DNA of 64,000 nt, taken from an uncultured bacterium (lineage in GTDB: Bacteria; Planctomycetota; UBA1135; GCA-002748355). Numbering within the stretch: the stretch's first letter is position 1; every line of letters starts with the position of its first letter. Shown piece by piece: positions 4,968-29,767 of this stretch. Made by a program: the position numbers and the translations under genes. The stretch is from the NCBI GenBank assembly GCA_937858895.1, contig CALLZN010000288.1, positions 6,074-70,073 on the forward strand, written 5' to 3'. A model generated the notes under the pieces. The model saw only the letters and a list, made by a program, of their open reading frames with translations, did no database searches and was not told the DNA's origin.

Positions 4968-5545
4968 CGCTGCGCCACCTCGGCCGCCGGCGGACCGTCG
5001 CCGGCCAAGTAGCGGTCGAGGTAGGCAAGCGCTGCGATCGACTGCCCGTCCCCGAGTCCGTCATCACCGGGCGGACCGAGAATGCGTCGACGGGCCTCAT
5101 CCAGCGTCACGACATCGACTTCGATGGCCTCGGAGGCCTCGAGCTGCTGGTCACCGGCTTCGAGTTCGCGCGCCAAGAACACGTGGCAGACCTCGTTCGA
5201 CACGCCCTTGTAGGGCGCGAAGGCGCCGATGTGCTCCCAGCGAGAAGCGCGGTAGCCGGACTCCTCGGCGAGCTCCTTCTTCGCGACCTCGAGTGCATCC
5301 TCGCCGGGCGCGATGCCGCCGATCGGGAACTCCCAAACCTTGCGGCGCAGGAGGTAGCGTTCGACCTCGACGACGACGACATCGCCATTCGCGAGCATCG
5401 GCACGACGAGCGAAGAGCCAGCCATGTCGATGTAGTAGTACTCGCCTTCCGACCGATCTCGCTGCGCGTAGCGATCGAGGCAGTAGCGGTGCCACGGATT
5501 GTCGACGAGGACGCGGCTCGAGATTCGCTCGAAGGGTCTGGGCAT
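4964..5545 (-). CDS. NUDIX hydrolase
   Basis: Nudix box GGIAPGEDALEVAKKELAEESG. ATG at 5545 (MPRPFERISS...) overlaps the upstream TGA by 1 nt. The longer ORF to 5983 was rejected. Confidence 0.85.
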   Translation of the reverse strand: MPRPFERISSRVLVDNPWHRYCLDRYAQRDRSEGEYYYIDMAGSSLVVPMLANGDVVVVEVERYLLRRKVWEFPIGGIAPGEDALEVAKKELAEESGYRASRWEHIGAFAPYKGVSNEVCHVFLARELEAGDQQLEASEAIEVDVVTLDEARRRILGPPGDDGLGDGQSIAALAYLDRYLAGDGPPAAEVAQR

Positions 5546-7308
5546 CAATGTCCGGTCGTGACCGTCATGAGTCGCGAGATCCCAACCGGGAAGGACGACA
5601 GCAAGAACGGATCGAAGTCGAGGATCTGAAAGTGCAGATCGACCCCGACGCCTGTCGGAATGCACGGCAGAGGAAGCACGAGCTTGGCATCGCCTGCCGG
5701 ATCCGCACGGACAGCATAGAACTCGATCGGGTCGAAGTAGAGCAGACAACCGCTGCGCGCGCCCACCGCCACGAGGTCGAGCGGCGACGCGAAGCGCTGG
5801 ACCCCGAGCATCCAAATGCTCGCTCCGCTCGGCACGAGCCCCCAACCCTCGACGGCGAAGTCGTTGCGACCCGGCATCGCAGGCACGAGCGTCCGCGCTT
5901 GCGGAAGCCCTCGCGAAGTCGCGAGCCCGACGCCAGACCATGTGACCTTCGCAGAGTTCTTGCTGATCCGCAGGCGGTCGCAAGTGAAGGGACGCTGCTG
6001 CGCCGGGTTGGCGATGCGCTCGCGATAGGCGATGTAGACACCGCCGAGGGCAGGTTGCGAGAGCTTGCCCCCGATGTGCACGCCGTCGCCGCAGCCGTAG
6101 CTACCGCCGAACCAAGCTTCCACGACATCGCCTCGCAACTCGAGGCGCACACGCTGCCAGCCCTGGTCGACCTGCGGTCGCAAAGCGATTTTGCCGAGGA
6201 CGCGGGGCGCGCTGCGCGCGTTGGCGCCCCAGGCGCCGTCGCCATGGTCGACGAGATAGAGGGTCGCACCGACATCGTCGGCCTCGTAGGTGAGCGAGAC
6301 CCCGGTGTTGCCGTTGGCGACGGACTGGGGTTGTGTGCCCGATACGTCAGCGAACTCGAAGTAGCTGCCGGTCCCACCCTGGGCACCGATGGACCACGTC
6401 GCGCGATCGGCGAGGGCGAGCGGCGAAGCCTCGATCCAGACCCAAGCCTCGATGACGACGTCCCGCACACCGTCCGCGAGCAGCATCGTCATGTTGCCGC
6501 CACCCTGCGCATCCCAGAAGACCGCCGCGTTGCCCCCCTGAGGTGAAGCTGGCACGACGCTCGGGTTGTTCGCATCGACCGTTTGAGGATCGATGACCAC
6601 AGGGAGCGCAAAGCTGCCCCCCCACTCGGCGAGTGTCGCGCCGACAGTCAAGCTATCGAAGCCTTCGTCGATCTCGCGCGGCGCGAGGTCGTTGCTCGCC
6701 CCAGGCGTCGCTGGAGCGATGCGGAAGTCGCGAGCGTTCCTCGTGTCGTAGCCATCACGAATGCGCGACCAAGAAGTCCGCCGCGCGTCGCGGCTCACGA
6801 AGTCGGGCCAGATCCCTTCGTCGATCGGCGAGCCGACACGCCACTTCGAGCGCCAGGCCTCGTAGACGACGCTGTCGACGAGCTTCGACTGCGCATCGAC
6901 GAGCTTCAACGCCGCTTGTGCGTTGTCCCAGATGTCCGTCGTGCCGACGACTTGGTCGACGCGCGGCACGGCCGCCGAGCCGAGCACATAATGCGCACCT
7001 GGCGCGATGCGCGCGCCCGAAGGCAGAACGAAGCTCGAGCGCGGCCCGATCGGATCCTCGCTCTCGAGGCGCCAACCCGATAGGTCGACGGTCGTGCGCG
7101 AGGCGTTGTAGAGCTCGACGAACTCGCCATCATCGACGCCTTCGTCGTCGTAGAGGAACTCGTTGATCACGACACCGCTTGCGTGCTGGGCACAAAGCGA
7201 CGTCGGTCGAGCGAGGAAGAAGGTCGTAGCCACCAAGATCAGGAAGCACGACGAACGAGAGTAGCGAGGCAGGCAGGCAGTCACGGCGCGACCAGGATAG
7301 CAGCGCAT
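5545..7308 (-). CDS. Secreted lamin-tail-domain (LTD) protein
   Basis: N-terminal hydrophobic signal, then VINEFLYDDEGVDDGEFVELYNASRTTVDLSGWRL (LTD signature). ATG at 7306-7308; the track start at 7311 is TTG. Confidence 0.7.
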   Translation of the reverse strand: MRCYPGRAVTACLPRYSRSSCFLILVATTFFLARPTSLCAQHASGVVINEFLYDDEGVDDGEFVELYNASRTTVDLSGWRLESEDPIGPRSSFVLPSGARIAPGAHYVLGSAAVPRVDQVVGTTDIWDNAQAALKLVDAQSKLVDSVVYEAWRSKWRVGSPIDEGIWPDFVSRDARRTSWSRIRDGYDTRNARDFRIAPATPGASNDLAPREIDEGFDSLTVGATLAEWGGSFALPVVIDPQTVDANNPSVVPASPQGGNAAVFWDAQGGGNMTMLLADGVRDVVIEAWVWIEASPLALADRATWSIGAQGGTGSYFEFADVSGTQPQSVANGNTGVSLTYEADDVGATLYLVDHGDGAWGANARSAPRVLGKIALRPQVDQGWQRVRLELRGDVVEAWFGGSYGCGDGVHIGGKLSQPALGGVYIAYRERIANPAQQRPFTCDRLRISKNSAKVTWSGVGLATSRGLPQARTLVPAMPGRNDFAVEGWGLVPSGASIWMLGVQRFASPLDLVAVGARSGCLLYFDPIEFYAVRADPAGDAKLVLPLPCIPTGVGVDLHFQILDFDPFLLSSFPVGISRLMTVTTGH

Positions 7309-7597
7309 CAACAGCGCAACGCCACGCGACCGCGGGTCGCGCTCCGCTTCACGATCCCTTGATCCGGATAGCGACGCAGGCCGAGGCTAGGCTTCGCAGC
7401 GCGAGCAGCGCGCCCATGCCATGGTCGCTGGCCGCGCCGTCGTCAGGTCCCGAGGCGAGCGAAGGCCAGGCCGTTGCCGTGGTAGAAGCGCTAGAAACGT
7501 GGTTTGTCTTGTCGAGGTCGAGCTGAGTTTCTCTTGTTCGCTCCTTCGTTGATGCAGACGCGTGAAGTCGCGAGTCCACGCTCGGTGTCCAACACGG

Positions 7598-9097
7598 TCA
7601 CAGCTGCCGGAGGACAGAGCAGCGCGGCTCGCGGATGTCGAGGACTTCCTCGACCTCGCTACCGTCGACGTAGCGCACCTTGAGCAGGTGCCGGCCCAAG
7701 GCCATCACGACGGTAGCTTCCAGGAGGCTTTCGAGCTCATCGCTCGATCGCGGACGAAGCTTCAGCACGACGTTCTCTGCTGCGGTGCCAATCGTGCAGT
7801 GGTCCACGCGTTGTGGCGGAGCATTCGTTGCGCGGAACGTGACGTGGACGATTGAGGCCCGAACCATGTCGGCATCGACCTGCCCGTCTGGAGCAACGAC
7901 CGCGCGCGAGATCCACGACTGTCCTCGAGCATGAGCGAGGATGCGGATGTGCCGACCAAAGTTCGCAACCCGTGCCCGCGGTTGGTGCCAAGTCGGGCGC
8001 CCCAAGGGCAGGGTACCTGGCTCTTCGTCGACAACGGCCTCGCCGTCGATGCGCGCGTCGACACGTAGAGGGCAGTCGAGCAGGCGAATGCCGACGAGTG
8101 CGACTTCGATCGCCTCGTCCGTCTCGCGAAACTCCATGGCAAATCGATTGCTCTGCCGCTCTTCGACGACGAACGATGCGGGCTCGGCTCTCGCGCTACC
8201 AAGCTCGCAGAACATCACGTCGTACACGTCAGGCGGCAAACGCCCCTCCCTCGTGCCGCTGTCGCTGTCACGCGGCAAGATGCCAAGACTGAAGCGTGTG
8301 CCGCTACGACGACCGCGCACAAAGCAGAACTGAGGCCCGACGAGAAAGGCCCCCGTCCGACGCATCGAATACTGCACTTCACATGGCAGGGCTGCACTCG
8401 GTTCGAAGAGCACCAGCGTATCGCTCTCCATCCGATACGGATACTGTTGCAGCTCACTCGACTTCTCATGCCCTTCAAAGCCTGCCTGCGGCACGAGGCT
8501 GATCAATCCGGCGCTGCTGCCAGTCCACTGCCAATACCCGGGGAGGTCATGCCCAGCCGGAGTCTCGCGGCGACGCAGCAGAACCGAGTCGTCGCGATAC
8601 GTGTAGTCGAAGCGCGGCGGTGTTGCATCCGACGTCGAGACGAAGTGCGCGACCGAAGCGCGCTCGAGATGCAAGCATGCAGGTCCACTCGCTGCATCGA
8701 TCACGTAGTAGCGCGTCGCCACACGCGACTCGGAGAGGAAGACCGAGAGCCAGAGCCGCTCCGTCGTCGGCGCCTCGAACTCCCACGTTCCACCTCCGTC
8801 ACGAGACCGTGCCTCGACGAAGGACTTTGCGCGAACGGACGCAAGTACGTTGCCTGGGTCGATACCGCGGACGTGGACCGCACGCGGCTGCAGTCCGCCG
8901 CTGAAGGTACAACGGACCCTTGTCAAAACTTCACTCCTGCGGCCGTCCAACGCCACCGCAGGTGTGGATCTACGGGGTTGCGACGGGGTCAGGGCATCGC
9001 TCGAGTTCGCGACACGCGACCCGCCCCGCCAGCAGTAAGCGACGCAAACGAGCGCGCAGGCGACAATGCCGCTCCCGAGAGCGTAACGCGACCTCAC
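7598..9097 (-). CDS. Hypothetical membrane-anchored protein with no recognisable domain
   Basis: In-frame GTG at 9095-9097 overlaps the Kelch gene stop (GTGA). It is followed by the hydrophobic anchor ALGSGIVACALVCVAYCW. The track ORF start at 9418 (TTG) would overlap the upstream gene by 325 nt. Confidence 0.45.
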   Translation of the reverse strand: MRSRYALGSGIVACALVCVAYCWRGGSRVANSSDALTPSQPRRSTPAVALDGRRSEVLTRVRCTFSGGLQPRAVHVRGIDPGNVLASVRAKSFVEARSRDGGGTWEFEAPTTERLWLSVFLSESRVATRYYVIDAASGPACLHLERASVAHFVSTSDATPPRFDYTYRDDSVLLRRRETPAGHDLPGYWQWTGSSAGLISLVPQAGFEGHEKSSELQQYPYRMESDTLVLFEPSAALPCEVQYSMRRTGAFLVGPQFCFVRGRRSGTRFSLGILPRDSDSGTREGRLPPDVYDVMFCELGSARAEPASFVVEERQSNRFAMEFRETDEAIEVALVGIRLLDCPLRVDARIDGEAVVDEEPGTLPLGRPTWHQPRARVANFGRHIRILAHARGQSWISRAVVAPDGQVDADMVRASIVHVTFRATNAPPQRVDHCTIGTAAENVVLKLRPRSSDELESLLEATVVMALGRHLLKVRYVDGSEVEEVLDIREPRCSVLRQL

Positions 9098-11388
9098 GGC
9101 TCGATATGCACGTGGATGGTGTTGGTGAAACCGACGGGCTGCGCAAGCTTGTCGAAGACGAGACAGGCATGGACGTAGTCGAGCCCCCGCAAGGCGGGCA
9201 GATTCGGGATCGTGTACGACGAGCGCCCCCGGCCGCTCGAGTTGAGCGGAATCGTCGTCAACGTCTGCAGACTGAGTTGTAGCAACGGATCCACCGTCAT
9301 GGGCAGGAAGAGCGACTTCGCCCCGAGTGAAATCGCTCTTCCCGGCGCGGGCGCACCTGAAAAGAGCAAGAGCGCAACGCCGCCATGTCCACGGGCATCG
9401 TCGAGCGTAAGCTCGCAACGCTCACCTGGTGCGAGGTATTGATGAAACTGCTGCGCGTGTTCTCCCCAGAATGTTGGGGCGCCGAAGCTCAGCATGAAAT
9501 ACTCGCGATTCGTATGGCCCATGATGTGCATGTAGAAAGCGACACCGACATCTCGGTTCGTGTCGTAGCCGGCCGCCACGGGACGGTTATAGTTATCGGT
9601 GCTCGCCGAGACCGTCACCTTTTGCCATGTCGTACCGTCCCAAGCCCAAACATCCTCGGCACCTGGCGCGATCGGCGTGCCGCCGCCGACCAGATAGGTC
9701 TTCCGATGCGCAACGTGGTAGAACATTTTGTGGCCTGTGCGCCAGGCCGGGCCTGAGGCGCCGACCGGTTGACAGGTCCATTGAGATCCATCCCATTCGC
9801 AGACGTCCGGGGGGCTTGTCGTGCCGAAGAGGACGATTCGATCGCGATGAGAGTCGTACACGACCGCGAATTCGCTACGGTTCGGCAGAGCACCCGCTGG
9901 CAAGGAATGCCAGCCTTGTGCATCCAAGAACCAAAAGTCGATGCCACCGGCATTGCTGTTCGCAATATACACAAGCCGTCTTCGCTTCGAGTCGTAGACA
10001 AAACTGGAATAACTTGTTACAGCTGGTGGCGAGAGCTTGGACTTCAACTCCGCCCACGTGCCGTTCGACCATTCCCACGTGCGTGGCGTCGATGGCCATG
10101 ATGCATGGGCAACGATCACCTTGCGTCCTGGATCGTAGGCCAAGTGGAGTCCACTGATCGGCAAATCCTTGATATCGGGAACATCGACAATACGATCGCC
10201 ACTCAGCATCTCGAAATGCCCTGGAACGTTCACACCCCCCCCCCACTTGTGCAGGATCCAGGCATCGTGAAGCGGCGAGAATACGTCCTGGTAGCGATAT
10301 CCGAGACTGGAGCTATGGCCGACAATCGCAGTCCCCAGCTTCGTCCACTGCAACTCCCCAGAAGCTGATTGCGCCAAGCTCCACAAGGACGAATCGTCAC
10401 CCGCGATCGGGCCATCAAAATGCAGGATGCCGGACGGAATCGAACACACGTTGGCCCAGGATGCGCGGGGCGTTGGACCAGCCGCGAAACGCGTGACCTT
10501 CGACCAATCCTTGCCGGCCCAAATCCAGACGTCGTACTGACGAGTCTTGTATTGCTCACTGCCGATGGCGAGCAAGTCGCCGGATGGCAGGCGACCGAGC
10601 TCAACAGAGTCCCAGTTGAGTACAGGAGTCGTGACGGCCGTCCTGAGCTTCGACCACTGGCCAAATCGCCATTCCCAAGTATACGCGTCCGCCTGCGCCC
10701 CTCCATCGAAGCCTGCAAGGACGACGATCGACTTCCGCCGTGGGCTATAAACAGCCGCATGGAGCGCTCGTGGACCGGGATCCAGGGTTGAAGCTGCGAG
10801 TCTCCACGCGGTGCCATTCCAGATCCAGGTGTCGCGCGAGGCCAGGGCTGGATAGCGAGTCGGCCCCACGACCGTTCCGCCGCCGTACATGACGATTTCG
10901 TTCCGCGACTCATCGAGCGTCATGCTCTGATGCCAAAGTCCCGGAGGACGTGGGCTCGACAGCGCAATGCGCTCCCACTTCCGACCGTCCCAGGACCACA
11001 TGTCGTCGAAGACCTTGCTCCCATCGCTGCCCCCGAAGAGCACGACTGCCTTGCGCACGGGATCCCACGCCATGGTCGCCCCACTCCGTCGACCCGGGTT
11101 CGGGACCGGGTACTTAGCACGCCAATCCCGCGCACCATCGCCGAGCTCCCAGGTTGTCTGCATGGGCAGGAACCACAAAGTGCCGGCGCGTGCGTTGAAT
11201 TGGCCGCCGTACATGACGGTTACCTTGCGCAGCGGATCGTAAGCCATCGCCGCGCCCCAGCGCGGAATCAGCGCAGCCACGGGCGCCTCATAGACTTCCT
11301 GAGCCTGGACGAAGCGCGTCGTCACCAGGCACAGCAAGAAGCAGAGCATCCAGCGCAGGCGAGAACTCACTTTACGTTGACCAGGCAT
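9094..11388 (-). CDS. Secreted Kelch-repeat beta-propeller protein
   Basis: Signal peptide MPGQRKVSSRLRWMLCFLLCLVTTRFVQAQ. Repeated Kelch-like units (VTVMYGGQFN, VVLFGGSDGSKVFDDMWSWDGRKWERI, IVMYGGG, IVLFG). Lower GC than the flanks. Confidence 0.8.
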   Translation of the reverse strand: MPGQRKVSSRLRWMLCFLLCLVTTRFVQAQEVYEAPVAALIPRWGAAMAYDPLRKVTVMYGGQFNARAGTLWFLPMQTTWELGDGARDWRAKYPVPNPGRRSGATMAWDPVRKAVVLFGGSDGSKVFDDMWSWDGRKWERIALSSPRPPGLWHQSMTLDESRNEIVMYGGGTVVGPTRYPALASRDTWIWNGTAWRLAASTLDPGPRALHAAVYSPRRKSIVVLAGFDGGAQADAYTWEWRFGQWSKLRTAVTTPVLNWDSVELGRLPSGDLLAIGSEQYKTRQYDVWIWAGKDWSKVTRFAAGPTPRASWANVCSIPSGILHFDGPIAGDDSSLWSLAQSASGELQWTKLGTAIVGHSSSLGYRYQDVFSPLHDAWILHKWGGGVNVPGHFEMLSGDRIVDVPDIKDLPISGLHLAYDPGRKVIVAHASWPSTPRTWEWSNGTWAELKSKLSPPAVTSYSSFVYDSKRRRLVYIANSNAGGIDFWFLDAQGWHSLPAGALPNRSEFAVVYDSHRDRIVLFGTTSPPDVCEWDGSQWTCQPVGASGPAWRTGHKMFYHVAHRKTYLVGGGTPIAPGAEDVWAWDGTTWQKVTVSASTDNYNRPVAAGYDTNRDVGVAFYMHIMGHTNREYFMLSFGAPTFWGEHAQQFHQYLAPGERCELTLDDARGHGGVALLLFSGAPAPGRAISLGAKSLFLPMTVDPLLQLSLQTLTTIPLNSSGRGRSSYTIPNLPALRGLDYVHACLVFDKLAQPVGFTNTIHVHIEP

Positions 11389-13799
11389 GTCTGCATGTTC
11401 TTCTTGGACAAGTTGGGGCGCGGCTCAGCGTCAGAGTATTCGATCGAATAGCGGCTCGCCTGTGTCGCCCCCGTCGGCTTGAGAGTTGCATAGGCGTTCG
11501 CTCCGTGTGTTCCTCGGCACCACGAATCGTAATTAACGATCAAGGACTGGCCCGCCACGAACGGCGACGCCGAACCGAGAAACAACCATGGCTTCCCCTC
11601 GTAGGTTGTCGGATGCAACAGTGCATCGAGCCACACGAACTTCTGGTTACCTGTCCCCGCTCCTCCTGGATTCGGATCGGGACTTATCGGGTAAACATAG
11701 AGATTCCCATTGACGATCGGCCCTTCGATAGCATCGAAGTAGCGCCAGAACGGATTGCTAGGATGGTAGATCGGGTTGACGATCGACCACCATGGATGGA
11801 CATCAGGCAGTAGATGCGGCGTAACGTCTGCAACCGTTGGATAAGACTGCGACCCCACGTGACGGTAACCCGTGGCGGCGGGCCTCGCAAACGCCCAATT
11901 CGACTGCCAGGTTGTGTCTGGAGCTGTGGCAAGGTCCACGTAGCGCGGCCTTGCCTGGAGATCCGGACCGCCACCCGCAAGGCTGTCGGGAACACCGATG
12001 AACCAGACGTATTTGTTGTCCATCTCGACCGTAATTGGACCAGGCGGATCCATAGTTTCTGCAGCCCTCGAATGAAACCGTGTCGTTCCAAAGCGATAGC
12101 CGGTCACAAGCAACTGTCCCAATTCATCCGCTCCGATATCGATCTTTCCATATGGATTCGAAGGGTTGTAACTCGGATGATCGGACTCTCGAGGATTGCC
12201 AAAGCCCTCACAATCGCTACTCCAGGAATGAAAGATCCACTGCTGCTCCTGCGTCGCAATCCAACCCGGCGGAACAGTGAACAGGCGCCCATTCGCCATC
12301 GTGAACGGCAGATCCGAGAGCCCTGCATCGACGAGCGGATTCAAAATCGTCGGCGGAGCATAAGCAGACTCGTTGGTAGCAACCGCGGGTGACAAACGGA
12401 AGTCATGAGCGGAGCCGTCGAACTCAGTCGCCGGCTTGAATATCGGGGGTGAGACCTGCTGTCCCGCGTAGATCAAGTCACGCACAAACAAGGTCCCCCG
12501 GCGCCCAGAAATCTCATTCCCCTTGCGCACGTAGTCGCGAACATCAATGCCAGGCATCGCAGGACTCGCGTTGCGCGCGAGGGTTACCTTATTGCCGAAC
12601 AATCCGTTGAGCAATGCTAGAGTCGTCATACGGTTGTAGCGACCGGAAGAGTACGCGTTGAAGTCCCGAGCAGGCATCACACTTGTCACGGTCAGATCAT
12701 CGGCATCCACACCTTCGAAGTCTGAGCACAAATTGGCGTTTATCACACCAAACGGCACTGGATTATTACCGACAAATGCCGGTTCCTGAGCGCTATCAAA
12801 TACATTATTGACGAGCGTGAGCCGCGAGACACCGCAACTATTCGGCTCCAGTGGGTCATACTGCCCATTCCAGATACCTAGACAATTTCCTGCGAACGTA
12901 TTATTGACAATGATCGGCTCGTGCGATACGAACGGAACTTGGTCACTCCTAGAAGCGTCAACAAATATTCCGTACGCATTGTAGAGAATCATGCAGTTCG
13001 TGATCGTCGGAACGCATTTTCGGCTTCTCGTCAGGAGGATGCCTGAAGTATTGTACGGCTGCGTGCCGTCCATCGCACCCAGAATTGCTACGCGGTCGAT
13101 AGTCGTATTTTCTCCGGTACACGCGATGTTGCGCTGCTTCCCGACAACAGTCCCAAAGTTCACAAGCTCACCAAACTGAACAATCGAGGAGCCTCCAGCG
13201 GCATGCGCGTCCAGATAGGTATTCAGCGCACTTGTGCCCTTCAACGTAAAGTTGGGTGGTATGCAAATCGGGAGCACCTCACCATTTGAATGAACGCCAT
13301 TATGGTTATAATAGCTCGGCGTTGGCATCGTGTTTGACCCAGAAGTCTGGGGGCCATATCTCCCCGGGAGCAAGTGTATGATGGCATGCTCGAAGATATA
13401 CTTTCCATCATTCGATGTATATGGAAGCGGCGAACCGCTGGTCTTCGTGCTTTCGTCGACAATAAAGTCGATCGCGGCCTTGATCGTGTAGAACGGCCAC
13501 GGATAGTGGTAGAGACAGTCGTTCGTCGATGGGTGAACCCAATCGACCGGCATGCGGAGATTGGGCTGCCCGGACTGCGCACCGGACTTCGGGTTCAGGT
13601 TTCGCGCCTGGGCATCGTCGCCGTAGTGCGGATCGACCCAAACTTGGATCACGCGGCCGAGCGGCGGCAGGCTCACCTGTGCGATGCTACGCCCGCAGCA
13701 GAGGCTGACGACCAGACAGGCAGCGAGAATGCACCACGCGTGAGTGCGTGAGTGCGTGAGTGCGTGAGTGCGTGAGTGCGTGAGTGCGTGAGTGCTCAT
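11367..13799 (-). CDS. Secreted right-handed parallel beta-helix repeat protein
   Basis: ATG at 13797-13799, with GAGG 6 nt upstream and a TTGACA-17-TTATCC promoter. Signal-like AWCILAACLVVSLCCGRSIAQ. Beta-helix-type repeats (NCMILYNAYGIFVD, IIVNNTFAGNCLGIWNG, LTLVNNVFDSA). Many A/T-ending codons, which is atypical for this window. Confidence 0.7.
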   Translation of the reverse strand: MSTHALTHSRTHALTHSRTHAWCILAACLVVSLCCGRSIAQVSLPPLGRVIQVWVDPHYGDDAQARNLNPKSGAQSGQPNLRMPVDWVHPSTNDCLYHYPWPFYTIKAAIDFIVDESTKTSGSPLPYTSNDGKYIFEHAIIHLLPGRYGPQTSGSNTMPTPSYYNHNGVHSNGEVLPICIPPNFTLKGTSALNTYLDAHAAGGSSIVQFGELVNFGTVVGKQRNIACTGENTTIDRVAILGAMDGTQPYNTSGILLTRSRKCVPTITNCMILYNAYGIFVDASRSDQVPFVSHEPIIVNNTFAGNCLGIWNGQYDPLEPNSCGVSRLTLVNNVFDSAQEPAFVGNNPVPFGVINANLCSDFEGVDADDLTVTSVMPARDFNAYSSGRYNRMTTLALLNGLFGNKVTLARNASPAMPGIDVRDYVRKGNEISGRRGTLFVRDLIYAGQQVSPPIFKPATEFDGSAHDFRLSPAVATNESAYAPPTILNPLVDAGLSDLPFTMANGRLFTVPPGWIATQEQQWIFHSWSSDCEGFGNPRESDHPSYNPSNPYGKIDIGADELGQLLVTGYRFGTTRFHSRAAETMDPPGPITVEMDNKYVWFIGVPDSLAGGGPDLQARPRYVDLATAPDTTWQSNWAFARPAATGYRHVGSQSYPTVADVTPHLLPDVHPWWSIVNPIYHPSNPFWRYFDAIEGPIVNGNLYVYPISPDPNPGGAGTGNQKFVWLDALLHPTTYEGKPWLFLGSASPFVAGQSLIVNYDSWCRGTHGANAYATLKPTGATQASRYSIEYSDAEPRPNLSKKNMQTCLVNVK
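13738..13795. repeat. 8-bp tandem repeat: TGAGTGCG on the + strand, CGCACTCA on the coding strand. Six full units plus partial units.
   Basis: Read directly. 13741-13788 is six perfect TGAGTGCG units, followed by TGAGTGC. It encodes M-S-(THALTHSR)x2-THA at the N-terminus of the 11367..13799 gene. Confidence 0.95.
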
Positions 13800-13826
13800 G
13801 GTGTGCCTCGATCCCGGGAACTCGCA

Positions 13827-13855
13827 GGATAACGGGTGGGCGACGACCCTGTCAA
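13827..13855 (-). promoter_or_regulatory. Sigma70-like promoter of the beta-helix/Kelch operon
   Basis: On the minus strand: TTGACA (13850-13855), a 17-nt spacer, then TTATCC (13827-13832). This lies about 28 nt upstream of the ATG at 13799. Confidence 0.45.
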
Positions 13856-29709: not shown

Positions 29710-29737
29710 CTCTCGTCTCTCTCTCTCACTCTCTCTC
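29710..29737. repeat. CT/GA-rich low-complexity tract
   Basis: ctctcgtctctctctctcactctctctc read directly. It is flanked by the hairpin GCACGGG-N9-CCCGTGC at 29738-29760. Confidence 0.9.
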
Positions 29738-29767
29738 GCACGGGCCCATGCATCCCGTGCAGGTCGG

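Follow-up and report, generated by a model that had tools for sequence, protein, structure and literature searches.

Why should a gene for an exported protein carry, directly behind its start codon, a perfect repeat whose unit is not divisible by three? The question is raised by three tightly packed minus-strand genes, here called g1, g2 and g3, on a 64,000-nt stretch of DNA (contig CALLZN010000288.1; hereafter the window) from an uncultured member of the Planctomycetota, a source under whose name identical protein fragments have been deposited. We propose that this locus is one of a multi-copy, Planctomycetota-specific family of repeat-switched operons that are phase-variable in the manner of the neisserial opa genes, and on the comparative sequence evidence we consider this reading likely. 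Its parts carry different weight. It is very probable that g1 is switched by its repeat, and we infer that this happens within a clone. That the whole operon follows the switch of g1, with g2 and g3 switching together, is somewhat favoured. A role of the products in envelope glycans or at the cell surface is a tentative suggestion, which we would not yet prefer over other roles and locations.

The first-pass annotation of this DNA had described three genes, with g2 starting 22 nt within g1 and the GTG of g3 overlapping the g2 stop as GTGA. These coordinates and junctions were confirmed, with the single correction that g3 encodes 499 aa and a stop codon instead of 500 aa, and the N-terminal export or anchor signals that had been assigned to all three proteins are visible in their sequences. 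The features at the 5' end of the operon and the three genes are as follows.

13826..13855, minus strand: sigma-70-like promoter candidate (TTGACA-18-TATCCT) about 27 nt upstream of the g1 ATG, 10 of 12 consensus matches
13806..13809, minus strand: Shine-Dalgarno (SD)-like GAGG, 6 nt upstream of the g1 ATG, read from the sequence
13738..13795, minus strand: perfect octanucleotide repeat (CACTCACG)7, codons 2-21 of g1 in the signal-peptide n-region; proposed slipped-strand ON/OFF switch
13680..13799, minus strand: g1 signal peptide, residues 1-40, predicted cleavage after SIA
11367..13799, minus strand: g1, ATG at 13799, 810 aa; predicted exported beta-helix protein, founding member of a Planctomycetota-restricted family
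9094..11388, minus strand: g2, ATG at 11388, 764 aa; predicted exported Kelch beta-propeller
7598..9097, minus strand: g3, GTG start overlapping the g2 stop as GTGA, 499 aa; predicted N-terminally membrane-anchored all-beta protein

The repeat begins 5 nt after the g1 ATG, between this codon and the core of the signal peptide, and is the top tandem repeat of the window (Tandem Repeats Finder, TRF: period 8, 7.2 copies, 100% matches, score 116). The N-terminus of g1 accordingly reads as THALTHSR repeats, followed by WCILAACLVVSLCC and SIA/Q. When unit counts were simulated, g1 was in frame with 4, 7 or 10 units only, and all others gave leader open reading frames (ORFs) of 26-52 codons. The tract differs in length between five assemblies of the same or an about 97% identical strain, in which alleles of 4, 5.5, 7 and 8 units were found. 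The window itself has 7 units and two Logan assemblies have 4, both in frame. The 5.5 units of ERZ794926 result from a 12-nt in-frame deletion, and the 8 units of GCA_035327345.1 (L062) place the gene out of frame, which is there annotated from a GTG after the signal peptide. An exact-match search of the JGI metagenomes gave no further alleles of this locus. The promoter candidate upstream of the tract is kept in the sister strain L063 with one change (TTGACG).

In the 8-unit allele the leader ORF comprises 44 codons and ends at a TGA that overlaps the GTG of V42 as GTGA (window 13673-13676; L062 1455-1462). V42 is among the first residues of the mature protein, and reinitiation at its GTG, the codon from which the gene is annotated in that MAG, could in principle yield a leaderless g1.

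Repeats at the 5' ends of g1-family genes

A search for relatives of g1 gave 22 homologues at 27-38% identity, all of them from metagenome-assembled genomes (MAGs) of Planctomycetota. Scanning one genome per species, we found 58 g1-family loci, which are spread over about 25 MAGs and usually occur as several in the same genome; 30 more loci are known from metagenomes. The habitats of these loci are wastewater, groundwater, marine and vent environments, and one MAG came from a dolphin oral sample.

For a census of tandem repeats (purity 90% or more, 3.5 or more copies, 18 nt or longer) we used a non-redundant set of genome loci totalling 977 kb. The 5' ends of g1-family genes (18.5 kb) held 27 such repeats, all with a period of 2, 4, 5, 7 or 8 nt, while the other 958 kb held 14, of which eleven had a period of 3, 6 or 9 nt and three a non-triplet one. 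Hence 27 of the 30 strong repeats with a non-triplet unit (2, 4, 5, 7 or 8 nt) were located at g1-family 5' ends, where such repeats are enriched several hundred-fold. The units are unrelated between loci and include CTTCT, CTGCGTC, GTTCGCC, TC, AGGA, GGAGA, TGCCGGAC and GCAGTCGC. What is conserved is the presence of a frame-shifting repeat and not its sequence. About 12 further g1 genes have a poly-C tract of 9-14 nt at the same place, bringing the number of genes with a repeat or poly-C tract to about 38 of the 60 whose upstream region is intact. The layout is uniform in most g1-family loci: an SD-like motif and an ATG are followed by a few codons, the repeat, a hydrophobic core, the A-x-A/Q at which the leader ends and, a few residues further on, the conserved RVIHLWVDPxYGDD. 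The g2 and g3 genes of the screened genome loci had no frame-shifting repeat at their 5' ends.

The enrichment was replicated on 19 new JGI metagenome contigs, which held eight repeats at g1 5' ends with units of 1, 2, 4, 4, 5, 7, 8 and 8 nt. In one contig (L082), a g1 gene is closely preceded by a 7-mer repeat and a T9 run, which lie outside of the scoring window, a window that is undefined for that gene; apart from these tracts, only hexamers were found away from g1 5' ends.

The reading frames of these genes differ according to whether they bear a repeat. With starts assigned by eye and script, the SD-proximal ATG was in frame in 7 of 35 repeat-bearing genes. Under a uniform rule that takes the ATG with the best SD motif, 10 of 40 repeat-bearing genes were in frame, which fits the one third expected at random (p = 0.32), and the other 30 were out of frame though their ORFs are intact. 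Genes that are free of repeats were in frame in 18 of 28 cases (Fisher p = 0.002 against repeat-bearing genes). The ORFs behind out-of-frame repeats stay open for more than 800 codons, and the ratio of nonsynonymous to synonymous polymorphism (pN/pS) of g1 between the window and its sister strain is 0.09, a sign of strong purifying selection, compared with 0.29 for g2 and 0.38 for g3, the latter being based on few differences. For these two reasons the out-of-frame g1 genes do not appear to be decaying pseudogenes. The tracts themselves can also persist, as the same pure pentamer is kept, with 6.0, 5.8 and 7.8 copies, in orthologues with about 74% nucleotide identity. The first-pass annotation had hinted that a repeat tract in the first gene could gate expression, and with the strong comparative evidence now available this is the best-supported part of that earlier interpretation. 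The pattern across the family is also the firmest of our findings.

Homopolymers also occur 50-220 nt upstream of some g1 genes (G11 at L003 2622-2632, A11 at L020 884-894, C11 at L016 274-284). They lie in promoter or untranslated territory and not in coding sequence, and may represent a transcriptional form of the same switch.

The genes of the family have a further trait in common, their GC content being 2.5-11 points lower than in the DNA on either side at all 35 loci compared (among them window 11367-13799, L007, L018 and L044). In the window, GC rises along the operon from 55.6% in g1 to 60.8% in g2 and 64.1% in g3. A recently transferred island had been considered for this region (GC 56-64% against about 67% in the flanks) and was rejected, given that the low GC of g1 is a trait of the whole family. 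This trait possibly originates from a relaxed codon usage of genes that spend most of their time OFF.

Proposed coupling of the three genes

If g1 is switched, are g2 and g3 switched with it? The order of g1, Kelch gene and g3-family gene, on the same strand and directly adjacent, was found at 11 independent loci of Planctomycetota MAGs, or in 13 assemblies when re-assemblies are included (the window with its twins L001, L063 and L064, and L002, L003, L005, L006, L007, L008, L009, L010, L011 and L025). Since the flanking genes differ between these loci, it is the triad that is conserved, and the earlier suggestion that the three genes form one unit holds. The junctions are tight in most of these loci. 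ATGA or GTGA overlaps connect g1 and g2 in L005, L006, L007 and L009, and g2 and g3 in the window, L007, L009, L010, L011 and L025, while at most of the others the genes are 3-6 nt apart. The recurrence of such junctions supports a translationally coupled operon. On the coding strand no promoter-like site precedes g2 or g3, apart from a weak 9/12 match within g1. One switch per operon is then the simplest arrangement, because the starts of g2 and g3 sit on the preceding stops and their 5' ends have no frame-shifting repeat.

For g2, an alternative in-frame GTG at 11370 overlaps the g1 stop as GTGA and would give a protein of 758 aa. This start was called by another gene caller in the sister strain (the -4 start is annotated in L063 and L064), and 4-nt overlaps recur in orthologous loci, for which reasons g2 may start at this GTG and not at the ATG at 11388.

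An alternative is a repeat that switches g1 alone, with g2 and g3 expressed from internal promoters or by independent initiation. We think this rather unlikely. The g2 and g3 starts have no clear SD motifs, other start codons are available, other gene callers picked non-overlapping starts, and the synonymous divergence (pS) differs threefold or more between the genes, all of which would suit independent expression. Against these points stand the ATGA and GTGA junctions that recur in orthologous loci, the lack of promoter-like sites other than the weak one in g1, and the distribution of frame-shifting repeats, which are frequent at g1 and absent from g2 and g3 5' ends, as one switch per operon would predict. 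We retain the operon that follows the g1 switch as the preferred reading, with the reservation that internal promoters may serve g2 and g3 in addition.

The pS values between the window and L063 are uneven along the locus (g1 0.13, g2 0.07, g3 0.02, downstream gene for a Lamin-tail-domain protein 0.06), and recombination or different histories within the locus may have produced this pattern.

The triad also matches the earlier proposal of an undescribed module. It corresponds to no curated family, and in the literature covered, which was incomplete, no paper connecting it with Planctomycetes was found. Models of anti-phage defence systems and phage proteins gave no match at E values up to 0.01 (PADLOC, PHROGs), nor was there a match in Rfam.

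The genes flanking the operon are unrelated to it. Upstream are a gene of the metallo-beta-lactamase fold and fatty-acid and methylmalonyl-CoA genes, and downstream are genes for a Lamin-tail-domain protein, a NUDIX protein, BrkB, a D-Ala-D-Ala carboxypeptidase and a sulfatase. The Lamin-tail-domain protein (window 5545-7311, minus strand, 588 aa, PF00932 E 1.8e-20) is encoded on the same strand 286 nt downstream of g3. It was considered as a fourth member of the operon and rejected, as it is absent after the triads of L002 and L003, though kept in the sister strains. Elsewhere in the window, an imperfect CT-rich tract lies in the intergenic region upstream of a plus-strand ORF (29710-29741; TRF period 2, 13.5 copies, 85% matches), and no g1-family gene is associated with it.

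The encoded proteins

Three further features, all within g2 and g3, are needed for the description of the proteins.

9097..9486, minus strand: C-terminal domain of g2, about 130 aa, unannotated; common to the FG-GAP partners of distant g1 paralogues
10235..10244, minus strand: G10 homopolymer within g2, codons about 382-385; possible second slippage site
9029..9085, minus strand: predicted transmembrane or signal-anchor segment of g3, residues 5-23 (YALGSGIVACALVCVAYCW), 19 hydrophobic residues after MRSR

For g1, the available evidence supports a right-handed parallel beta-helix, an assignment of fold class only and not of function. Two hidden Markov models (HMMs) of beta-helix families matched below their cut-offs (NosD with 16 against 23.6 bits, E 0.008; para_beta_helix TIGR03804 with 17 against 19.45 bits, E 0.003). 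An AlphaFold (AF2) model built on the 22 homologues reached a predicted template modelling score (pTM) of 0.77, with a predicted local distance difference test score (pLDDT) of 70-94 in the core. In Foldseek searches with this model all top matches in PDB and BFVD were right-handed beta-helices (best E 2.7e-4 and 1.8e-5, respectively), among them pectin methylesterases, alginate epimerases, pectate lyases and tailspikes, though these matches are weak and have low TM-scores. The part of the model that matches the fold is the core of about residues 100-540. The model lacks confidence for about 270 residues, most of them C-terminal, which include a poorly modelled C-terminal region of about 190 residues.

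The Kelch beta-propeller that had been called for g2 is firm, with PF24681 at 72.1 bits against a gathering cut-off of 50 (E 5.5e-20) and PF24981 just below its cut-off (47.9 against 50). The N-terminus of the protein consists of WMLCFLLCLVTT, followed by VQA/Q. Distant g1 paralogues are followed not by a Kelch protein but by an FG-GAP propeller of about 500-560 aa (PF13517, E 1e-32 to 1e-50). Both kinds of partner share only their extreme C-terminal domain of about 100-130 aa with the motif IPNxPxLxGLxLxxQAL...TN (alignment A5, 16 loci), for which no sequence match was found in Pfam or PDB. As this domain is shared by otherwise unlike propellers, the constant theme of the family is a beta-helix protein together with a propeller that carries it. 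The third gene, g3, is added in the Kelch subfamily only.

Some loci contain tandem arrays of these modules. Four consecutive pairs of g1 and FG-GAP genes are found in L036 (JADJWQ010000001.1), g1 fragments alternate with Kelch genes in L025, one g1 gene is followed by three FG-GAP genes in L042, and L044 has three Kelch genes on the opposite strand.

The G10 tract in the middle of the Kelch gene is the sole homopolymer of at least 8 nt in the window. A slip at this site would end g2 behind its first propeller and break the coupling to g3. L001, L063 and L064 have the tract at the same length, and no equivalent tract was found in orthologous g2 genes.

The third protein, g3, had been described as an orphan with no recognisable domain. 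It indeed has no match in Pfam or NCBIfam, but its orphan status did not stand, as we found a family of related proteins at the third position of the triads. Between the third-position proteins of L003 and L002 the identity is 29% (E 7e-50), and both align to the same part of g3 (BLASTP E 2e-5 and 5e-4, respectively). A phmmer comparison of g3 with its relative in L006 gave an E value of 1.6e-6, and an exhaustive phmmer search of 1.8 billion proteins returned P0025, the g3 relative of L011, with E 1.3e-4. A second weak match of this search (P0024) was treated as spurious, as it is a repetitive protein that matched over a short stretch only. Word-indexed searches of a 5.8-billion-protein index, with the single sequence and with the family profile, gave only the cluster of g3 itself, and locus searches seeded from g3 alignments gave nothing for lack of conserved stretches. 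The g3 of the window is the most divergent member (16-21% identity), and its link to the others is weak but consistent in position. Sequence and position thus place it in a family that is confined to these triads, though at a great distance from the other members.

The alignment of this family has 11 rows, the eleventh of which (P0025) is N-terminally truncated. The 10 full-length members share an M-K/R-R motif, a hydrophobic N-terminus and a low-complexity linker. This shared anchored N-terminus, together with the tight junctions, favours the 499-aa start of g3 over the 442-aa call of another pipeline. A weak match to the CarboxypepD_reg beta-sandwich was obtained for 6 of the 11 members, and the GC content of g3 by codon position (0.68/0.52/0.73) is of the coding type.

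The nature of these proteins also allows a different functional reading, in which the operon is a secreted polysaccharide-degrading module for the acquisition of nutrients and not one for surface recognition or adhesion or an antigen. In this case g1 would act as a lyase, hydrolase or epimerase with the propeller and g3 as its accessories, and the switching would represent bet-hedging over a costly secreted enzyme. We regard this as doubtful. The fold matches of g1 are mostly to carbohydrate-active proteins (pectin methylesterase, AlgE/AlgG epimerases, pectate and alginate lyases, glucanases), the family has many invariant D, E, H, R and N residues at an identity of 27-38%, and the sulfatase gene is located nearby in the window. 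However, tailspikes and fibres without enzymatic activity are also among these matches, which are weak (best E 2.7e-4, TM below 0.3). No CAZy-type family of Pfam was matched, and the flanking genes are not conserved between loci. Moreover, asparagine and aspartate ladders are structural in beta-helices, and a membrane-anchored partner suits an envelope complex more than a freely secreted enzyme.

Proposed phase variation in Planctomycetota, and known systems

Could the repeat of g1 exist without being a switch? The operon might be an ordinary, constitutive one and the repeat a tolerated, length-polymorphic low-complexity stretch in a cleaved n-region, an explanation to which we give little credence. 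It would account for the alleles of this locus, three of four being in frame and one change being a frame-preserving 12 nt, and length changes would be harmless because the repeat residues leave with the leader. Neutral coding repeats should, however, favour units of 3 or 6 nt, as is the case away from the g1 5' ends, where 11 of 14 repeats are triplet-compatible, whereas all 27 at these ends are non-triplet. An out-of-frame allele of 8 units does exist, and three quarters of the repeat-bearing relatives (30 of 40) are out of frame with long ORFs intact. Least credible of all is that the frame shifts are assembly or sequencing artefacts or that the out-of-frame genes are decaying pseudogenes, with no regulated or selected switching. 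In favour of this view, all data are MAGs and metagenome assemblies, some of them from long reads, homopolymers are error-prone, one scaffold breaks at the repeat (L058) and the 8-unit allele has mismatches in its tract. Against it, the repeats were found by different assemblers and projects, and perfect repeats of 4-8-nt units do not arise from errors, which moreover would not be confined to a single site in a single gene family. The open downstream ORFs and the low pN/pS of g1 do not fit decay, and the same pure pentamer is kept by orthologues with 74% identity.

Several observations nevertheless weigh against a phase-variable operon of envelope proteins. At the locus itself, a single allele out of four is out of frame. 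Another one differs by 12 nt (1.5 units) and so is not a simple unit slip, and the out-of-frame allele, that of 8 units, has three A-to-C mismatches in its tract, which suggests a weaker assembly. All tract lengths were taken from consensus assemblies and not from reads, and thus give no view of variation within a population or of reversibility. The promoter is a consensus match only, of a kind seen three times in 10 kb where 1.7 are expected. Within the family, about 40% of the members have no long repeat, and the rule of SD motif plus ATG is noisy (10 of 28 repeat-free genes were called out of frame) and unvalidated for Planctomycetota. With regard to the products, the HMM matches of g1 to beta-helices are sub-threshold, its model is mediocre overall (pLDDT 62), and the model of g3 is unusable (pLDDT 31, from a 2-sequence alignment), so that only its all-beta secondary structure was used. 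The signal sequences indicate passage across the cytoplasmic membrane only and not arrival at the cell surface. The surface recognition or adhesion module that the first-pass annotation had suggested is a possibility only.

With these points in mind, a phase-variable operon would most likely work as follows. The promoter upstream of 13826 would transcribe g1, g2 and g3 together, and translation from the ATG at 13799 would enter the (CACTCACG)n tract, which encodes the n-region of the signal peptide, a part that can be spared. The number n would be altered by slipped-strand mispairing at replication. With 4, 7 or 10 units the frame would be kept and the beta-helix protein made and exported, and with any other number translation would stop after 26-52 codons. 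The repeat-encoded peptide (THALTHSR...) would be cut off after export and would thus cost nothing. Loss of g1 translation is expected to lower g2 and g3 as well, both by lost coupling and by polarity over 2.4 kb of untranslated RNA, because the start of g2 overlaps the end of g1 and that of g3 overlaps the stop of g2. In the ON state, an exported beta-helix (g1), an exported Kelch propeller with the C-terminal domain of the family (g2) and a beta-sandwich protein tethered to the cytoplasmic membrane (g3) might act together in the envelope, as a complex for the binding or modification of glycans or for the building of a surface structure. This functional proposal is the weakest part of our reading. 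Since a genome usually holds several loci, which differ in their repeats and would switch independently, a population of mixed envelope states would result. By analogy with known contingency loci, the complex could be a target of phages or grazers.

Taken further, these considerations lead to the proposal that a clade of uncultured Planctomycetota might run a multi-locus phasome, the first to be described for this phylum, with three to five or more independently switching envelope operons per genome. The operons, gated one by one by frame-shifting repeats in their leader peptides, would stand for new envelope complexes made of a beta-helix protein, a propeller (Kelch or FG-GAP) with the shared docking domain and sometimes a membrane anchor. 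Such a phasome would probably be a form of bet-hedging against envelope-recognising phages or grazers and one of the clearest contingency systems outside host-adapted bacteria. We consider this wider proposal nearly balanced, leaning slightly towards its being wrong.

Repeat-driven phase variation is usually seen as a hallmark of pathogens and commensals that face host immunity, and a 2025 review frames it mainly in terms of bacterial-host interactions (PMC11868660). Here it would concern dozens of loci of environmental Planctomycetota. In the papers that we found, neither phase variation nor 5' repeats are connected with Planctomycetes or Planctomycetota, an absence of evidence only, as the coverage of the literature was incomplete. 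If our reading is true, random switching of the envelope might be of general ecological use, with defence against phages or grazers as one example, and would no longer be a matter of host adaptation alone. It would also explain many of the gene calls in these MAGs that appear "frameshifted" or N-terminally truncated; several gene callers in fact began g1-family genes after the signal peptide. In-frame and out-of-frame tracts would further provide an experimental handle on a three-protein complex without a known role, and the claim can be checked cheaply with sequencing reads that already exist.

The closest known parallel in mechanism are the opa genes of Neisseria, which carry a CTCTT pentamer as coding repeat in the leader region and account for 11 phase-variable loci in one N. 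gonorrhoeae strain (PMC11868660). As in opa, the start codon is separated from the signal-peptide core by a perfect non-triplet repeat, changes in unit number shift the frame, and the repeat residues are cleaved off. There are likewise several paralogous loci per genome with a tract each, most copies are out of frame at once, and L003, L004 and L065 even use a CTCTT-type pentamer. The cargo is unrelated, with a beta-helix, a propeller and an anchored protein in place of an 8-stranded outer-membrane barrel, and a three-gene operon in place of a single gene. Units of 1, 2, 4, 5, 7 and 8 nt occur in one family, and the hosts are uncultured environmental and wastewater Planctomycetota, known here from sequence alone, as opposed to a host-restricted pathogen. 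No Opacity-family, Pmp or autotransporter domain was matched in g1, g2 or g3 by Pfam or NCBIfam models at E values up to 1; membership in these families was rejected on these grounds, and the likeness is one of mechanism only.

The chlamydial Pmps are paralogous beta-helix adhesins in the same superphylum (Planctomycetes-Verrucomicrobia-Chlamydiae, PVC), some of which show frameshift variation at poly-G tracts. They and the g1 family have in common that multi-copy, predicted beta-helix envelope proteins of the PVC group vary in frame at homopolymers or repeats. In contrast to the Pmps, g1 has no autotransporter barrel and no Pmp match in Pfam, and it is accompanied by a propeller and g3, whereas Pmps are encoded by single genes.

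In terms of fold, the core of the g1 model matches only that of pectin-lyase-like carbohydrate-active proteins and phage tailspikes. It differs from these in that no curated threshold was reached, identity is 9-15%, and g1 has no assignable catalytic motif.

A further comparison is with the surface-glycan contingency loci of Haemophilus and Campylobacter, which have tetranucleotide and poly-G repeats at the 5' end of the coding sequence (PMC2651432, PMC8437040, PMC6321876). Hypermutable 5' repeats in genes that shape the surface, many independent loci forming a phasome, and ON/OFF states set by the reading frame are features of both. What is switched in those organisms are for the most part glycosyltransferases of the cytoplasm or modification enzymes whose pathways are known, whereas exported proteins without an assigned function are encoded here, in organisms that, but for the MAG from the dolphin sample, are not known as host-associated. 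The switching mechanism proposed for the planctomycetal operons is a classical one. What is new is the phylum and habitat in which it appears, a conserved cargo module that is absent from databases, the proposed gating at the level of a whole operon, and the range of unit sizes within one gene family.

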